Assembly (NCBI GenBank): GCA_024653775.1
Contig: JANLHZ010000250.1
Location: 595-64,594 of the forward strand
Reading direction: 5' to 3'
DNA: 64,000 nt
DNA from: Planctomycetota bacterium
Lineage (GTDB): Bacteria; Planctomycetota; UBA8742; JACQVU01; JANLHZ01
Numbering within the stretch: the first letter of the stretch is position 1; each line of letters starts with the position of its first letter. Made by a program: the position numbers and the translations under genes. A model generated the notes under the pieces. That model saw nothing but the letters and a program-made list of their open reading frames with translations. It made no database searches and had not been told where the DNA came from. Below are positions 26,269 to 44,811 of the stretch, piece by piece.

Positions 26269-29196
26269 CTACGGCACTGTCACCGAGAGTTCCGTCGTGT
26301 TCGAATCCTCGTTGCCCGCTGCATCGACTGCGCGAACCGCGTAGTAGTGAACGACGTTTCCGCCTGTCGTGAGGTTAGTGTCGGTGAAAGTGAGCGTCCC
26401 GTTCGTCACTGTGGCGTAGGGCGTCGAGTAATTCATCGACGGCATCACGAAGTACATTACCCGTGGGTCGTTTGTGTACCTGTAAATGTTGTAGGTGATC
26501 CCAGTCGCGGCTGTGACGTTATCGCTCGCCGCGCTCCAGGTGAGCTGGACGCCGTTCGCTCCGGTCGTGACTGTCGTTAGAGTCGCGGACGAGAGGCCGT
26601 TAAAGCTCGGCGGAATCGTATCCGCAGCGTTCGCGCCGACGCTGAAAGGCGTTGTCGCGTTCGACGCGGGCTGATAGCCGACAAGCCACGCGCTCGCGCT
26701 GTAAGTCCCGTTCGATCCCGCCGAGTAGGTCGAAGTGAAAGTCTGCGTCTGGAACGCGGCGACGGTGAAATTCGTAAACGCCTGCGTGAAGAACATCGTC
26801 GAGCTCATCAGCCAGACCTGCACGCCGTTTGCGTTCGTGACCGCGAAATCGTACTGATGGCCGCTCGAGAAGTTGTACGTCACCGCGGCGTTCGTTCCGT
26901 TCGTGATAGTGTATTCGAGCGTGATCGTCGCGCCGGAGCTAAACGTGCTCTGGACCGCGCCAGCGGAGTCCTTCAGAACGAGCGAGTACGTAACTCCCGT
27001 GCTGCTTCCCGCAGAGACCGTGAACGGATACGCGGGAATCGTCCCGACCGTTGTGGTCGAAGTCCCGTTGTGCGGGACGCTTCCGTGGCCTTCGTAGCTG
27101 CCCGCGGGGAGCGCCGCGCCACTGTTGTCGACAACGTTCCACTGGGTGCTGAACGTGTGCGTCGCGCCTGCTGCGATGGTGAGCGTGGTCGTCGCCTGCG
27201 TGAACGATTTTCCATTCGACCAGTGCCAGAAAAGCTGGATCGGCATTCCAGACCCCGGTGGCGGAGTGGGGGACGTCACGTTGAAGTCGTACTGCTGACC
27301 GGTGGCGAAACTGAGCGTAACGCTCGAACTCCCGGTGTTCGTCAGAACCATCTGCCAGGTATAGCTGCTACCAGCGCTGACGGTTGTTACCGCGGTGCCT
27401 GTGTTGTCGAGCAGGGTCAGAGAGCCGGTGATCTGCGCGTTCGTGCCGCCGCCGGAGGAGACGAGGGTGAACGTCGGCGACGTGAAAGCCGGGATCTGCG
27501 TAGGCGCGCAGTTTCCGAGTATGCTTCCGGACGCGGTGTACGTCCCCGCCGCTTGCGTGCTCGCCGGGAACCACGCGCCCTGGTACGTGAGGCTCTGACC
27601 GGGCGCCATCGTCTCCGGAGGAGCGACGGGAGCGGGCGCGCCCGGCGGCGGCGCCGCGCAGCTCGGAAGCGGCGAAAGCCAGCTAAACGTTCCGTTCGAG
27701 TCGACGATGCTCCAGGTGGATCGCTGGTAGCAGCCGCCGGTGTACGTTACCGTCTGATTCTGCGAGGTGCCGTTGAAAAGGGTGATTCTGAAATGCACGG
27801 AGTTTCCGACGGTGAACGTGCTGGTCGGATTTCCGTTCGCGTCCTCGGTGATCATGGTCGCGGTCAGCGCGCCGCCCCCGGTGTTTCCGCTTGTAATCGC
27901 GAGCGTTACGGGCGCGAACGTCCCGAATGCGTCGGGAGCGCTCGTCCCCGTGATCGTTCCCGTAACCGTGTAAGTTCCCGCGGGGAGAGCGTTTCCGCTG
28001 TTATCGGTGAGGCTCCAGTTGACCGTGGGATTCAGAGTCTGCCCCGGATTTACGCTCGTCGTAACGAAAGCCTGAGTGAAGAATATTCCCGCGGCGGTGC
28101 TCCAGCGGTAGAGTTCGTTTCCGTTCGCGTCGGACGCCGTGAATTCGTAGGTCTGCGAGGACGGATACGTCACGGTCTGGATCTTTCCCGTGCCGTTCGT
28201 CGCGGTGAGGCGGAGCTTCACGGACGAATTCTGCGGAACCGTCGAAACCGCGACTCCGTTCGAATCCGTGACGGCGAAAGAGGTGGTCCAGCCGTTGTTC
28301 GTCGGGGGAGTGGCGGACGAGTTATCGACGTGCATCATCGCCGTGTAGCCTGCGACGCTGTTCGTGGTGCCGTCGTTGCAGGCGATGCTGATGACGTAAT
28401 CCGAGGAGTTCTGCCCCGGCTCATCGATGTGGCTCTCCCAGGTGATCCAGTAGGTTCCAGCGCTGAGGCCCGTTGTCTGGCCCGTAACGGTTGCGTTTCT
28501 GAAACTCGAACCGGCGCTTCCTCCGCGGTACTGCACCGAGATGGTGAGCGCGTCCGGGTCCGGATCGGTGAGGATGAAGTTGATCGCGATATTCCCGGAG
28601 AGCTGTCCTGAAGGAGTGTTCACCGCGACGGACGTCGGCGTGTTGTTCGAAGCGCTGACGACCTGGAAGAAACTGAAATGCAGCGCCTGACCCGTGATCG
28701 TGTTCGCGCCGGTGTTGCGGTTCTTTATGCTGAGGAACGTGAAGTTCGATAGCGTTCCCGACCACGTCACGATCTGGAGTTTCGATTCGTCCGTGACTCC
28801 CGCCGCTAAGAGCTGCGCGTCCGTGTAGTGCAGCGCCACGTCGACCGGCTGGACGAAGTTCACTCCGGACGGCCCAAGCTCGACCGGCGTGCTTACTCCG
28901 GAGTAGCCGGAGGGAAGCGCCGCCTTCGGAGAGGTCGTCGCGTCCGCGATCGTGAAGTTCGTATTCTGCACCACCGCGGCGGTGGGAACGGTTATCGCCG
29001 TGCCCGCAAGCGGCGAGGCCGCATCGGTAACCTGCACCGTCCCGCCCGTGGGGCCGATGCTCGAAGACTGCACGACGGTGCTTCCGTTCTGAGTGGAATC
29101 GCCTGCAACAAGCGCCGGGCCGGACGAGGCTCCGCAGCCGATAAGCCACGCCGTGGCGAAGGCGAACGACATAAGTTTCAAGTTACGGTATTTCAT
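26269..29196 (-). CDS. large lipoprotein with multiple BsuPI-like (proteinase-inhibitor fold) domains and a C-terminal FN3 domain
   Basis: Lipobox LIGC. Repeated pattern N.T...VT..F.SGQ.YDF.V....G...W.WS....FTQA. FN3-like end (LTWSAASDN...YNIYR...YYAVRAVDAAGNE). The start at 29196 has a GAGGA RBS. Confidence 0.85.
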   Translation of the reverse strand: MKYRNLKLMSFAFATAWLIGCGASSGPALVAGDSTQNGSTVVQSSSIGPTGGTVQVTDAASPLAGTAITVPTAAVVQNTNFTIADATTSPKAALPSGYSGVSTPVELGPSGVNFVQPVDVALHYTDAQLLAAGVTDESKLQIVTWSGTLSNFTFLSIKNRNTGANTITGQALHFSFFQVVSASNNTPTSVAVNTPSGQLSGNIAINFILTDPDPDALTISVQYRGGSAGSSFRNATVTGQTTGLSAGTYWITWESHIDEPGQNSSDYVISIACNDGTTNSVAGYTAMMHVDNSSATPPTNNGWTTSFAVTDSNGVAVSTVPQNSSVKLRLTATNGTGKIQTVTYPSSQTYEFTASDANGNELYRWSTAAGIFFTQAFVTTSVNPGQTLNPTVNWSLTDNSGNALPAGTYTVTGTITGTSAPDAFGTFAPVTLAITSGNTGGGALTATMITEDANGNPTSTFTVGNSVHFRITLFNGTSQNQTVTYTGGCYQRSTWSIVDSNGTFSWLSPLPSCAAPPPGAPAPVAPPETMAPGQSLTYQGAWFPASTQAAGTYTASGSILGNCAPTQIPAFTSPTFTLVSSGGGTNAQITGSLTLLDNTGTAVTTVSAGSSYTWQMVLTNTGSSSVTLSFATGQQYDFNVTSPTPPPGSGMPIQLFWHWSNGKSFTQATTTLTIAAGATHTFSTQWNVVDNSGAALPAGSYEGHGSVPHNGTSTTTVGTIPAYPFTVSAGSSTGVTYSLVLKDSAGAVQSTFSSGATITLEYTITNGTNAAVTYNFSSGHQYDFAVTNANGVQVWLMSSTMFFTQAFTNFTVAAFQTQTFTSTYSAGSNGTYSASAWLVGYQPASNATTPFSVGANAADTIPPSFNGLSSATLTTVTTGANGVQLTWSAASDNVTAATGITYNIYRYTNDPRVMYFVMPSMNYSTPYATVTNGTLTFTDTNLTTGGNVVHYYAVRAVDAAGNEDSNTTELSVTVP

Positions 29197-29427
29197 TGCA
29201 TCCTCACGATATGAAAAATTGTTCGAGTCCAAGATATAGCTTCTCCGAGCAATTCAAAAGCAAAAATGAAACCAATCGCTCTAAAAACAATCGGCGTTTC
29301 TCGTCAGGAACACCGTTCCCGGACGGTAACGCTGGTTATTGACATAAAGTCGAGAAACGCGAAACTCCGGGGAACCGCGAATGAATATCGAAGGTGATAA
29401 CCTTGTTGCCGCATGAAAGGACAATCG

Positions 29428-30102
29428 CTATGGGCCTATGGCATTTAAGTAAGACGCTGCCCGTCGTCCAACTAACGTGACTAAATAAACTGCCTCTGAA
29501 CGACTAAAGATGTTTATCCGAGCGATTGTGTTGAACGAAACTAGCACATCCAATTCTTCGTCAAGCAACAAGGTTCCTTCCCAAAATGGCGGAGACGATT
29601 CTAGGCTATTCTTAATATCACTGAACCATATTCCTTCCACAGTATGGAGCAAACCACCGTTATTTGTTGATTGGCTCCGAACCTGTGTTTTGGAAATTAC
29701 AGAAAGAAGCCGGATTTGGATACTTGACAGGCGGGCCAAATGTTCGATAACAGAGCGCTTATTGCGATCATTAACATTCTTAGGCGTCGAGCAAACACCA
29801 ACCACCCGTGACAACAAATCAATTTTAGGTTTATCCGGTTCATGCACTATCTTTTCGAACAATAGCTTAAAAGTAGCAATAGCTTCCTCCGACTCGAACC
29901 AATCTTTATTGATACGATCCTCACCGATCTTTCGAATTTCTTCGGACAGAGAGGTTAATGACGCGTTTATATTTCTTGATGCAATCTCATCTGCTTTATC
30001 GAAAAATAAATGGTCCAAAGCTCCTCCCACGCCAGGTACCATCGAAACAGCGGCTCTTACCGTCGATCTTAAAGAGGGAATGGCATCTCTTGTAATTTCC
30101 AT
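29428..30102 (-). CDS. hypothetical protein in an AT-richer islet (possible effector of the RHH module)
   Basis: 224-aa all-helical-looking ORF with no domain recognised. Its composition differs visibly from the flanks. Confidence 0.6.
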   Translation of the reverse strand: MEITRDAIPSLRSTVRAAVSMVPGVGGALDHLFFDKADEIASRNINASLTSLSEEIRKIGEDRINKDWFESEEAIATFKLLFEKIVHEPDKPKIDLLSRVVGVCSTPKNVNDRNKRSVIEHLARLSSIQIRLLSVISKTQVRSQSTNNGGLLHTVEGIWFSDIKNSLESSPPFWEGTLLLDEELDVLVSFNTIARINIFSRSEAVYLVTLVGRRAASYLNAIGP

Positions 30103-30161
30103 TAGCTTTTTTTCAGTTCAATATCTAATAAATAAGCTTCCTGGTGGTCATAGAGATTATC

Positions 30162-30282
30162 CACGAAGGACACGAAGATGCACGAAGAATTCTTCGTGTT
30201 CTTTCGGTATCGAAACGTCCCAGGCACTTCGAAAGAGCCGCGCACGAAGTAAGTGGGTTGGAAGATCAGCGCTTACTTCGTG
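30162..30282. promoter_or_regulatory. array of six CACGAAG heptamers (candidate RHH operator)
   Basis: Direct copies at 30162, 30171, 30181 and 30243. Inverted copies at 30192-30198 and 30276-30282. 30181-30198 is the perfect palindrome CACGAAGAATTCTTCGTG. Confidence 0.45.
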
Positions 30283-30446
30283 CGCGTCTCCTCGTCGTCT
30301 CTGAATTTCTTATCGTGTTTTTTCACGGCTTCGGTAAGGAGGAATTCGATCTGGCCGTTGATGGAACGAAACTCGTCGTCCGCCCACTTTTTGAGCGCGT
30401 TCCAGAGTTTGTCCTCGATTCGAAGCAGAAGTTGCTTTTTGGCCAC
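30273..30446 (-). CDS. Arc/MetJ-type ribbon-helix-helix protein (not in the ORF track; GTG start)
   Basis: Own translation: VAKKQLLLRIEDKLWNALKKWADDEFRSINGQIEFLLTEAVKKHDKKFRDDEETRTK. GGGAG lies 7 nt upstream of the GTG. Classic beta-strand plus two-helix RHH pattern. Confidence 0.7.
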   Translation of the reverse strand: MAKKQLLLRIEDKLWNALKKWADDEFRSINGQIEFLLTEAVKKHDKKFRDDEETRTK

Positions 30447-30536
30447 TGTTTCGCTCCCTCGTTCCGCTGGCTCGTTTCGCCCTCACCCGCCCATCGGGCA
30501 CCCTCCCCGGAGGGAGAGGGGAAAGCTCCCTACTCC

Positions 30537-31472
30537 CTACCTGTGAAGCGTGCCCGTGTTGATGACGGGCTGCGCCTCGGTTTCGCCGCAGAGGACCACG
30601 AGCAGGTTCGAGACCATCGCGGCTTTCGCCTCCGGGTCGAAATCGATGACTTTCTTCTCTGAAAGCTGAGTCAGCGCCATATCGACCATGGTTACCGCGC
30701 CGTGGACGATCTTCTTCCTCGCGGCGATGATCGCCTCGGCCTGCTGTCTGCGGAGCATTGCGCTCGCGATTTCCTGCGCGTACGCGAGATGGTTCAGCCG
30801 GACCTCCTCGACCTCCACACCGGCCTTCGAAAGCCTCTCCTGGACCTCCTTCTGCAGCGCCTCGTTGACCGCGGAACTGTCCGCGCGAAGCGTGATCACG
30901 GTCTCGTCGTCCTCCTCCATATGATCGTATGGATACTGGGTCGCGATGTTCCTGAGCGCCGACTCGCTCTGGACTTTCACGAAGTTCTGGTAGTCGTCGA
31001 CGTCGAAAAGCGCCCGCGCGGTGTCGACGACCTTCCAGACGACGACCGCGCTGATGTCCACGGGGTTTCCGCGCTTGTCGTTGACCTTCAGTCGTTCGCC
31101 GTCGAAGTTGCGCGTGCGCAGCGAGATCAGGATTTTCGAATAGAACGGATTCGTCCAGAAGAAGCCGCTTTCGCGGACGGTGCCCTTGTACGCGCCGAAG
31201 AGGAGCAGCACCCGCGCCGCGTTAGGCTGGAGCATGAAATGTCCGCAGAGAAGAATGATCGCGCTTACCACTGCGAGGCCGCCCGCGCCCATTCCCCAGC
31301 CCCAGTTCTCGACGTGGGTTCTGTCGAGCTGGACCGCGCTGTAGATAAAGCAGACGACGCCGCCAATACCGAGCATCAGATTGACGAACAGCATTCCGAA
31401 GCCGTTCTTGACGTTTATGACTTTTTCCTGAGACTGGTGCATGTTTTCCTCCGGTTTGAGAACAGATACCAC
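30537..31472 (-). CDS. SPFH/band-7 domain protein
   Basis: N-terminal TM helices followed by the SPFH pattern (LLLFGAYKGTVRESGFFWTNPF...VDISAVVVWKVVD...ALRNIA). Confidence 0.9.
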   Translation of the reverse strand: MVSVLKPEENMHQSQEKVINVKNGFGMLFVNLMLGIGGVVCFIYSAVQLDRTHVENWGWGMGAGGLAVVSAIILLCGHFMLQPNAARVLLLFGAYKGTVRESGFFWTNPFYSKILISLRTRNFDGERLKVNDKRGNPVDISAVVVWKVVDTARALFDVDDYQNFVKVQSESALRNIATQYPYDHMEEDDETVITLRADSSAVNEALQKEVQERLSKAGVEVEEVRLNHLAYAQEIASAMLRRQQAEAIIAARKKIVHGAVTMVDMALTQLSEKKVIDFDPEAKAAMVSNLLVVLCGETEAQPVINTGTLHR

Positions 31473-31625
31473 ACTGATATCATAATAATATCATACGCGC
31501 CACTGCCCGGCGAAGTTCGAAGGCGAAAAATAAATTTTCGCGTTCTGTTCGAACAATGTGGCGGTTTGTCGGCGCAGGTAAGACGATTGCGCACAGGGCA
31601 ATCGCATTTAGAATACCACATTTTA

Positions 31626-31702
31626 TTCGTACCGTCTACGAATTATTTGTACTGTTATTGTCGGCGGACAAAATAATACATTAAATTCGTAGACGGTACG
31701 AA
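31626..31702. repeat. TTCGTA-N5-TACGAA palindromic element, paired copy (locus a)
   Basis: TTCGTACCGTCTACGAA (31626-31642) and its complement TTCGTAGACGGTACGAA (31686-31702) flank an inner TTATTGTC/GACAAAATAA hairpin. Confidence 0.65.
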
Positions 31703-31719
31703 TTTAATGTTGTATTGCG

Positions 31720-32559
31720 CTACCGCAGCCAGCCGCGGAGTTTGTCGATGGACTCGGTTATCCGCGTCGGCGCGTCGTGAGTGTTTCGCGATAGCTCGAC
31801 GCTGATCAGATTCCCGTATCCGAGGTCTTCCAGAGTTTTCAGGACCGACGGAAAGTCGATCTCGCCTTCGCCGAGCGGGAGGTGCTCGTGCACGGGGCGG
31901 ACCATGTCTTCGATGTGAATCTGCCGGAGGTCCGCGATGTTCTCGCGAATCGCGTCCGGGATCGTCTTCGACTCGTCAAGATGCGCGTGGCCGACGTCGA
32001 GCGTCAGCCACAGCCGACCGCGATCCGCGAGCGCGTCTTTCAGCCGGTGCCACTCGCTGACGGTCTCGATGAACATACCCGGCTCCGGCTCGAAGCTTAC
32101 GTCGATCCCTCGATTCCCTGCGTATTCTATAATCGCGGGCAGCCGCTTCGCGAGCATCTCGAACGCTTCGTCGTCGCTCGTCCCAGGCTCTTTCACACCC
32201 GACCAGAGACTTACGCACCCGGCGCCAAGGCGCTCGGCGACGTCGATCGTGCGCTTTAAATATTCGAGCCGCGAAAGCCACGCGTCGCCTTTCGTCACGA
32301 GCGTAGGAAAGTGTTTTCGCTTCGAATCGAGCAGAAACCTCGCGCCGGTTTCCATCGCGATTTCAAGGCCCAGCTCTTCAACGACGAGTTCGATCGCGCG
32401 AACGTCGAGCACGCCCGACGTCAGCGGGTTCAGATGGTGCGTATCGAGGGTTATCGACGCGCCCGCGTATCCCGCGTCCGCAATCATCCGTAGCGCGTCT
32501 TCCAGACGGTGCTGCAGACAACCCGATGTGTGGTACGCGAACTTTAGGACGTGTAACAT
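31720..32559 (-). CDS. sugar phosphate isomerase/epimerase (xylose-isomerase-like TIM barrel)
   Basis: LDVGHAHLDE, IHIEDM, HLPLGEGEIDF, ISVELSR motifs. The start codon lies inside the arm of repeat copy 3. Confidence 0.85.
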   Translation of the reverse strand: MLHVLKFAYHTSGCLQHRLEDALRMIADAGYAGASITLDTHHLNPLTSGVLDVRAIELVVEELGLEIAMETGARFLLDSKRKHFPTLVTKGDAWLSRLEYLKRTIDVAERLGAGCVSLWSGVKEPGTSDDEAFEMLAKRLPAIIEYAGNRGIDVSFEPEPGMFIETVSEWHRLKDALADRGRLWLTLDVGHAHLDESKTIPDAIRENIADLRQIHIEDMVRPVHEHLPLGEGEIDFPSVLKTLEDLGYGNLISVELSRNTHDAPTRITESIDKLRGWLR

Positions 32560-44627: not shown

Positions 44628-44640
44628 ATTTCCGATCCCC

Positions 44641-44808
44641 TACTCCCTACTCCCTACTCCCTGTTCCCTACTCCCTGTTCCCTGCTCCCTACTCCCTTCT
44701 CCCTACTCCCTGCTCCCTTCTCCCTACTCCCTGCTCCCTACTCCCTGCTCCCTACTCCCTTCTCCCTTCTCCCTACTCCCTTCTCCCTACTCCCTTCTCC
44801 CTACTCCC
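44641..44808. repeat. 24 x 7-bp tandem repeat TNYTCCC (GGGARNA on the coding strand)
   Basis: Counted units are TACTCCC, TGTTCCC, TGCTCCC and TTCTCCC. The array fills the spacer between the stop at 44812 and the start at 44627. Confidence 0.95.
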
Positions 44809-44811
44809 TTC

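Follow-up and report, generated by a model that had tools for sequence, protein, structure and literature searches.

We analyze a short AT-rich islet and its surroundings in a 64,000-nt stretch of DNA (hereafter, "the window") from a Planctomycetota bacterium (assembly GCA_024653775.1, contig JANLHZ010000250.1, positions 595 to 64,594). Read along the minus strand, the locus holds a gene for an SPFH/Band-7 membrane protein, a small ribbon-helix-helix (RHH) gene, a cluster of CACGAAG heptamers, and a gene for a 224-aa protein (Table 1). A preliminary description of the locus had joined the last three into one horizontally acquired pair of the toxin-antitoxin or abortive-infection kind, with the RHH protein as repressor or antitoxin, the heptamers as its operator and the 224-aa protein as the effector. 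Our analysis points to a different arrangement, in which a foreign, single-gene, abortive-infection-like cargo with a phage-derived motif upstream of it was probably inserted beside an unrelated SPFH-RHH operon. The evolutionary anatomy of this arrangement, namely a native SPFH-RHH operon with its own putative operator, a foreign Abi-alpha-related cargo and a phage-type motif, is well supported, and the adjacency of RHH gene, repeats and effector is a coincidence of insertion.

Table 1. Features of the locus, in window coordinates
Feature	Coordinates	Strand	Remarks
AT-rich foreign segment (islet)	29412..30234	none	holds the 224-aa gene and its upstream motif region
224-aa gene, intact, of a rare Abi-alpha-related family	29428..30102	-	helical N-domain and C-terminal winged helix
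Triple-heptamer motif, TTATC-CACGAAG-GA-CACGAAG-ATG-CACGAAG	30157..30187	+	phage-type pattern
Inverted array partner	30192..30207	-	one perfect CTTCGTG (closes the palindrome at 30181-30198) and a degenerate CTTTCGG
Hairpin with 19-bp arms, one CACGAAG per arm	30235..30290	-	covers the final codons of the RHH gene, stop codon included
Arc-family RHH gene, 57 aa	30273..30446	-	native; SPFH partner, outside the islet
SPFH/Band-7 membrane protein gene	30537..31442	-	Band_7 E = 1.4e-30; first gene of the conserved SPFH-RHH pair
Putative RHH operator: TATGATAT-N3-TATGATATCA (31475-31495, 11-bp phasing) and GGTATC	31465..31495	-	upstream of SPFH

The islet stands out by its base composition. The GC content is 0.37-0.47 across ~29200-30230 versus ~0.60-0.67 in both flanks, so the AT-richer segment reported earlier is borne out. 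The RHH gene, which had been counted as part of it, has a GC content of ~0.50 and lies outside the foreign segment. The insert is ~0.85-0.9 kb in size, with the native SPFH-RHH operon on one side and a lipoprotein gene on the other. Groundwater run X1 contains a 201-nt contig from a related strain that agrees with 29252-29411 at 95% identity and beyond that point runs into sequence absent from the window; this divergence at 29411/29412 marks the left boundary of the insert, 16 nt past the stop codon of the 224-aa gene. The right boundary is approximate, between 30234 and 30292, and would lie at ~30292 if the hairpin of Table 1 belongs to the insert. The low GC content, the divergence of the related strain at 29411/29412 and the presence of relatives of the 224-aa protein in integron cassettes, prophages and defence islands (described below) together identify the segment as foreign and horizontally acquired, in agreement with the earlier proposal. 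The related strain is too thinly covered in run X1 for empty-site reads to decide the matter, and Rfam gives no family within 28800-31800.

The RHH gene is a 57-codon open reading frame (ORF) that falls below the cutoff of the mechanical ORF list and was pointed out in the preliminary description. We find it present as described, with a GTG start and the ribosome-binding sequence AGGGAG 7 nt upstream, and its product has Arc-family matches: to RHH_5 at E = 2.4e-5 (its 24.4 bits narrowly miss the gathering score, 26) and to the PHROG Arc-like repressors at E = 4e-5. Several of its 217 database relatives carry the name "Arc family DNA-binding protein", and KKQLLLR, the DNA-reading beta-strand of the RHH fold, is invariant among relatives from different phyla.

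Band_7 genes adjoin RHH relatives in the three genomic contexts viewed first. The window's SPFH gene probably starts at the ATG at 31442, which is preceded by GGAGG, although the mechanical ORF begins at 31472. Using its product as the query, we collected 80 genomic loci from Planctomycetota, Limisphaerales and many Bacteroidota. An RHH homologue lies directly downstream of SPFH in 79 of the 80 by tblastn, usually 10-200 nt away, and the same order is seen in spirochaete loci too, while tblastn finds a relative of the 224-aa protein in none of the 80. Judged from this gene order, the RHH gene belongs with the SPFH operon and adjoins the insert only by accident of insertion. As an observation in its own right, the pair of an SPFH/Band-7 gene and a small Arc-family RHH gene (30273-31500 in the window, minus strand; loci L005-L088) is kept across Spirochaetes, Planctomycetota, Verrucomicrobiota and Bacteroidota, and ABC-transporter genes come after it in some loci. 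A literature search turned up no description of an SPFH-RHH unit.

The same loci suggest what the RHH protein binds. In a k-mer comparison, GATATC occurs in 30 of 79 regions upstream of SPFH versus 196 of 2243 background pieces; the enrichment of GATATC(A) across the 79 loci is 4.3-7.5-fold, with GATATCA at 7.5-fold. The element as a whole is palindromic and 12 bp long (TATGATATCATA / TGTGATATCACA type), has the consensus (T/A)(A/G)TGATATCA(T/C)(A/T), and is found in spirochaete, planctomycete, Limisphaerales and Bacteroidota loci. This palindrome is likely the cognate operator of the RHH protein, which would then control its own SPFH operon through a site other than CACGAAG; around the SPFH and RHH genes of the other loci, the heptamer shows no enrichment. 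The arrangement recalls the omega repressor, an RHH protein of the Arc/MetJ type whose heptads read WATCACW: the SPFH-linked RHH protein shows the Arc-family pattern, and the presumed box (TGTGATATCACA / TATGATATCATA) resembles inverted ATCAC heptads. This likeness is limited to the SPFH promoter region and does not extend to the CACGAAG array, and the box itself is putative.

These results bear on the reading of the preliminary description, in which one acquired two-gene module would comprise an RHH antitoxin or repressor, its operator (the CACGAAG array) and a toxin or Abi effector (the 224-aa protein). Its appeal is easily understood. RHH gene, repeats and effector follow one another on one strand, RHH proteins typically bind phased short repeats, and, in a manner reminiscent of type II toxin-antitoxin systems with an RHH antitoxin (of the ParD, CcdA or RelB type), a small RHH gene lies here upstream of a larger uncharacterised gene, with repeats nearby. 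A lone GATATT (30125..30120, minus strand), which resembles half of the SPFH-side box, stands 14 nt before the ATG of the 224-aa gene, as expected at chance level. However, the pair is not conserved. We assembled 47 loci of the 224-aa family, and an RHH or SPFH relative is present in 0 of the 47 (tblastn and a hidden Markov model built from 120 RHH relatives); in the opposite direction, the RHH gene follows SPFH at 79 of the 80 loci above and none of them has a 224-aa gene. Since the two genes are not conserved as neighbours, the idea of an RHH/operator/effector unit fails. Whereas tight coupling of the two genes is typical of toxin-antitoxin pairs, here the RHH gene is part of another operon and is separated from the 224-aa gene by a 170-nt spacer that holds, at the stop codon of the RHH gene, a strong hairpin (-37.2 kcal/mol). 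The RHH protein, moreover, has the same minimal length as its orthologues behind SPFH genes and a C-terminal tail of the same length and character, with no toxin-binding extension beyond the RHH fold; its invariant DNA-reading strand is paired with a different conserved palindrome; and the phage stretches that carry the array, to which we come below, have no such RHH gene. We therefore consider a two-gene module very improbable.

The six CACGAAG heptamers lie at 30162, 30171 and 30181 (plus strand), 30192 (minus), 30243 (plus) and 30276 (minus), so that 6 of the 20 copies in the window fall within 121 bp (30162-30282). This is the second-densest heptamer cluster in the window, and six copies were reached in 1 of 40 Markov-simulated windows, the usual maximum being four. 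The earlier count of six copies is correct, as are the three direct copies at 9-10-bp phasing and the perfect 18-bp palindrome CACGAAGAATTCTTCGTG at 30181-30198. The placement of all six between the two genes is not, as the hairpin straddles the stop codon of the RHH gene and the copy at 30276-30282 is thus within its coding sequence. The "two more copies" that had been appended to the palindrome exist too, but each sits in one arm of a separate inverted repeat with 19-nt arms (30235-30253 / 30272-30290; z = -3.4 for the RNA fold of -37.2 kcal/mol), which is distinct from the array. A reading of the array as an extracytoplasmic-function sigma or sigma-70 promoter was dropped by eye, the spacing to -10-like elements being unfit.

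The hairpin may have come with the insert. In the closest RHH relative, the stop codon is followed by a terminator-like hairpin that differs from this one. A 151-nt contig of run X1 that aligns to 30230-30292 contains both hairpin arms and their outer flanks, but with the right arm first, then 9 nt, then the left arm, an order that would result if the unit occurred elsewhere as a tandem repeat.

The array, in turn, has relatives of its own. Three or four short contigs of run X1 hold near-exact, 33-34-nt copies of 30155-30189 within unrelated flanks. Scanning IMG/VR with the exact pattern CACGAAGNNCACGAAGNNNCACGAAG, whose 21 fixed bases should give far below one match there by a rough chance estimate, we obtained 44 stretches from 34 contigs with 57 unique sites, and as many as 7 copies in 8.3 kb. 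The consensus of the 57 sites, tTTaAC-CACGAAG-rr-CACGAAG-rrr-CACGAAG, has a conserved 5' flank, purine-rich spacers and fixed spacing. The array contigs (GC 0.44-0.69) encode terminase and portal or head-morphogenesis proteins, and hence belong to tailed, uncultivated phages; among the partial stretches fetched, no protein family is common to more than 5 of the 34 contigs. The sites are intergenic in AT-rich contigs, and an inverted partner is often found 15-45 nt off. A divergent gene start lies within 60 nt of the array flank at 26 of 55 sites, versus 24% at random positions, and this geometry is that of the window, where the 224-aa gene is preceded by CTTCGTG x3 and then GATAAT, 53 nt upstream of its ATG. 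Relative to co-oriented downstream starts, the position of the arrays is the same as random. The motif is in no cultured phage searched, and Virus Rctr41k is without arrays.

None of the 44 fetched stretches encodes a homologue of the window's RHH or SPFH protein or a member of the 224-aa family, and a double CACGAAG heptamer is found in no SPFH locus and in no other locus of the 224-aa family. What had been proposed as the operator of the RHH-effector module is thus a motif dispersed among uncultivated phages, whose fetched stretches encode neither of the two proteins. The array is probably a set of binding sites for a phage or host regulator, like phage operators or stoperators, the many dispersed sites of phage repressors (PMC9283540). 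With the stoperators of cluster A mycobacteriophages (PMC9283540) it shares a short conserved motif, many copies per phage genome and a position in short spacers next to genes. It differs from them in its triple heptamer, its 9-10-bp phasing and its often inverted pair, as well as in the GC content of the phages (0.44-0.69) and in having no identified binding protein. Triple arrays of CACGGAT, CACGGAG and CACAGAG, with the same 9-10-bp phasing, stand near CACGAAG arrays in the same phage contigs (IMG/VR stretches L140, L163, L168, L164 and L177), which suggests a family of related binding sites.

We now turn to the 224-aa protein. It has no match at meaningful E-values in Pfam, NCBIfam, PADLOC or PHROG, so the earlier statement that it lacks a recognisable domain holds. 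A word-indexed search among 5.8 billion protein clusters returned only 3 homologues (44-49% identity), and an exhaustive profile search of 1.84 billion representatives returned 358 relatives at E <= 0.001, 37 of them at E <= 1e-30, nearly all of which are 215-250 aa long. By tblastn, the family is without a match in GenBank phages or PLSDB plasmids. A first structure model, made from 4 sequences, was discarded (predicted local distance difference test, pLDDT, of 62), and an AlphaFold2 model from a 60-sequence alignment reached a pLDDT of 95.8 and a predicted template modelling (TM) score of 0.87. In the latter model, residues 1-125 form a helical domain that holds IPxVGGxLDHLxFD, the family's most conserved motif, and residues 125-224 form a winged helix. 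The invariant polar residues are D30, H31, N44, E73, E88, K93, D112 and K115.

Structure comparison agrees with this division. Foldseek gave no whole-chain match in the PDB for the model, and origin recognition complex subunits (TM < 0.31) were set aside as architecture-level noise. For the C-terminal part, it gave many matches to MarR, HxlR, PadR and ArsR proteins (probability 0.96-0.99, target TM 0.5-0.6), and sequence profiles compared with solved structures produced weak PadR and BlaI winged-helix matches in the same C-terminal place. Compared with viral models, the structure is most similar to an unnamed 229-aa protein (E = 1.4e-3, TM 0.48).

A C-terminal winged helix of the PadR/MarR/BlaI type, encoded just downstream of an 18-bp perfect palindrome, invites the reading that the 224-aa protein is a transcription factor, perhaps an immunity or repressor-like protein of phage origin, which would control its own gene by binding to the heptamer array; stoperators show that a phage repressor can have many dispersed sites (PMC9283540). 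However, the position of the recognition helix is taken by a conserved acidic helix, ELEILES, which would be unfavourable for DNA contact and makes classical DNA binding doubtful. The distribution of the two elements is also at odds with this reading: the family occurs in 0 of the 44 array-bearing phage stretches, the double heptamer recurs at no other family locus, and the regions upstream of the four homologues that we examined have no shared repeats and no comparable array. We regard this reading as quite unlikely.

The preliminary description had also noted a vague likeness of the 224-aa protein to Abi-alpha/DUF4393 proteins. This holds in part, in that remote members of the family come near the threshold of the Pfam model Abi_alpha (PF14337, formerly DUF4393) but the window protein itself has no match. 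At E <= 0.01, Abi_alpha matches 6 of 60 family members, but even the top score, 26.0 bits, stays below the gathering score of 29. The matches are confined to one distant subgroup (P0185, P0186, P0190, P0194, P0195), score 16-26 bits, fall within profile positions 3-148, span ~100-145 positions and are all sub-threshold; individual Pfam scans of 20 other family members gave no Abi_alpha match. Aligned by hhalign, the core family and the distant subgroup match over their full length (99.9%, E = 2.9e-33, 201 columns). Given the sub-threshold matches of the subgroup and its homology to the core, the family is best described as a putative distant sister of Abi_alpha that falls outside the current Pfam model.

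Abi-alpha itself is EF2833 of prophage 6 in Enterococcus faecalis V583, a 272-aa, single-gene abortive-infection protein whose phenotype is premature lysis and a loss of plaquing (PMC6356687). Abi-alpha (PMC6356687) and the 224-aa family are alike in being single-gene systems of ~220-270 aa, mostly helical with no known catalytic domain, and carried by prophages and resistance islands. The hosts differ: those of Abi-alpha are Firmicutes, whereas those of the 224-aa family are environmental Gram-negative or unknown bacteria.

The settings of the family are those of mobile genes. In locus L001, the family gene lies between two 123-nt repeats (132-254 and 932-1054), imperfect palindromes bounded by [G/C]TCTAAC at the start and GTTAGAC at the end, and the gene of L003 is followed by a comparable 60-nt site (717-776). 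As these flanking repeats are of the attC type, the two copies are integron cassettes, and attC-type flanks are thus found at two of the three closest homologues; loci L094/L095 have an attC-like site just upstream of the family gene. An ungapped attC scanner proved overly stringent, as it failed to recover sites already known, and the fold-based scan that we used had a hit rate similar to that of controls, for which reason only sites directly flanking the gene were counted. In both L001 (132-254, 932-1054 and about 1532 onward) and L003 (717-776), the R'' box (CTCTAAC) of the attC site that follows the gene includes its TAA stop. A study of Vibrio integrons reports that many cassettes are small defence systems, among them Belisama, with Abi-alpha-like homology (bioRxiv 10.1101/2024.07.02.601686). 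By description, Belisama (DUF2806) and the other cassettes of sedentary chromosomal integrons resemble the 224-aa family in being small, single-gene and mobile; they differ from the window copy, which appears to lie outside an integron and has no attC site.

The preliminary description had proposed a survey of whether homologues sit in defence islands, and several loci suggest that they do. The surroundings of the family gene in L092 include type I restriction-modification genes, a Shedu SduA_C protein, a lipase and a PDDEXK nuclease, and in L090 a gene for a SIR2-like protein comes after it. Among the 138 proteins encoded no more than three genes away from a family member, Pfam identified N6_Mtase (3), Methylase_S (2), HsdM_N (2), AAA_21 (3), SIR2_2 (2), AbiH, RVT_1, Cas1 and SNF2 (1 each) and P2 tail proteins (3), the remainder being ordinary metabolic genes. 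Two family homologues are on IMG/VR contigs, and across these contigs, L092 and the census, the family gene stands alone on prophages or phage-resistance islands. All-against-all clustering of the family loci showed no conserved neighbour beyond near-duplicate contigs. In the distant subgroup, a conserved gene of ~203 aa without a Pfam match follows the family gene (L090 8718-9329, L092 8671-9282), and the two genes may be a two-gene variant of the system.

From its relatives, their contexts and the literature, the 224-aa gene is most likely a single-gene phage defence of the abortive-infection type. Its winged-helix domain would sense a phage component and its N-domain would be the effector. 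The CACGAAG array would have arrived with the insert as a copy of the 32-nt phage motif, and may tie expression of the 224-aa gene to phages that bear the motif. Carried one step further, the islet would be a phage-sensing defence cassette, with a helical effector domain, an acidic winged-helix sensor and a promoter region built of the phages' own triple-heptamer motif, so that a regulator of the incoming phage switches on or releases the defence gene; this extension we hold to be rather unlikely.

Several observations weigh against the interpretation of the locus as a foreign, single-gene, abortive-infection-like cargo with a phage-derived motif. The window protein has no Abi_alpha match at E <= 1 and no PADLOC match, so that its link to Abi-alpha is transitive and below threshold. 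The census of neighbours, which suggests an association of the family with defence islands and mobile elements, is without a formal background control. The evidence from strain variation is a single, low-depth contig of 201 nt, and we infer the co-arrival of the array with the 224-aa gene from adjacency only. The window has neither an attC site (fold-based scan) nor a tRNA gene, and the 224-aa gene has no sigma-70-like promoter and no Shine-Dalgarno sequence.

The last of these points would also fit a reading of the islet as a decaying, functionless remnant of a prophage or cassette, with the repeats as leftover phage intergenic sequence and the gene heading for loss. In its favour are the degenerate inverted partner of the array, a gene with no recognisable promoter or ribosome-binding site, the lack of an attC-type recombination site in the window, and the absence of the islet from the public runs searched. 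Against it, the ORF is not truncated, all residues that are invariant in the core alignment of 16 members are retained, and the three forward heptamers and their flank are perfect. We judge a functionless remnant to be unlikely, and retain the reading of an intact abortive-infection-like cargo beside a native SPFH-RHH operon.

Some other features of the window were noted in passing. A hairpin at 31611-31716, ~100 nt long and made of two 20-33-nt palindromes (ACATTAAATTCGTACCGTCTACGAATTTAATGT and an inverted copy), lies between a xylose-isomerase-like gene and SPFH and gives spurious microRNA-precursor matches in Rfam. A tandem heptanucleotide repeat, CCCTACT x 24.6 with 86% matches, occupies 44638-44809, and two CCCTACT copies are also present in the SPFH-RHH spacer (30528-30543). 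On the other side of the islet, a 987-aa ORF (26269-29232, minus strand) has three BsuPI (proteinase-inhibitor) domains; its start is most likely the ATG at 29196 rather than the TTG at 29232, and the protein read from this ATG opens with MKYRNLKLMSFAFATAWLIGC, a lipoprotein signal peptide with a lipobox.

For annotation, the locus carries a lesson: a small RHH gene, repeats and an unknown gene can mimic a toxin-antitoxin pair although each part has a different evolutionary partner. Two cis-elements are brought out by the analysis, a palindrome upstream of SPFH-RHH that is shared across phyla and a 32-nt triple-heptamer motif found across uncultivated phages; if the phage-sensing reading were true, the CACGAAG triple heptamer would be a new and widespread regulatory element of environmental phages. 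The ~358 relatives of the 224-aa protein form an uncharacterised family without a Pfam model, and its confidently predicted fold, together with its mobile, defence-island-like behaviour, recommends it as a plausible candidate for a new antiphage system, encoded by one gene and related to Abi-alpha.

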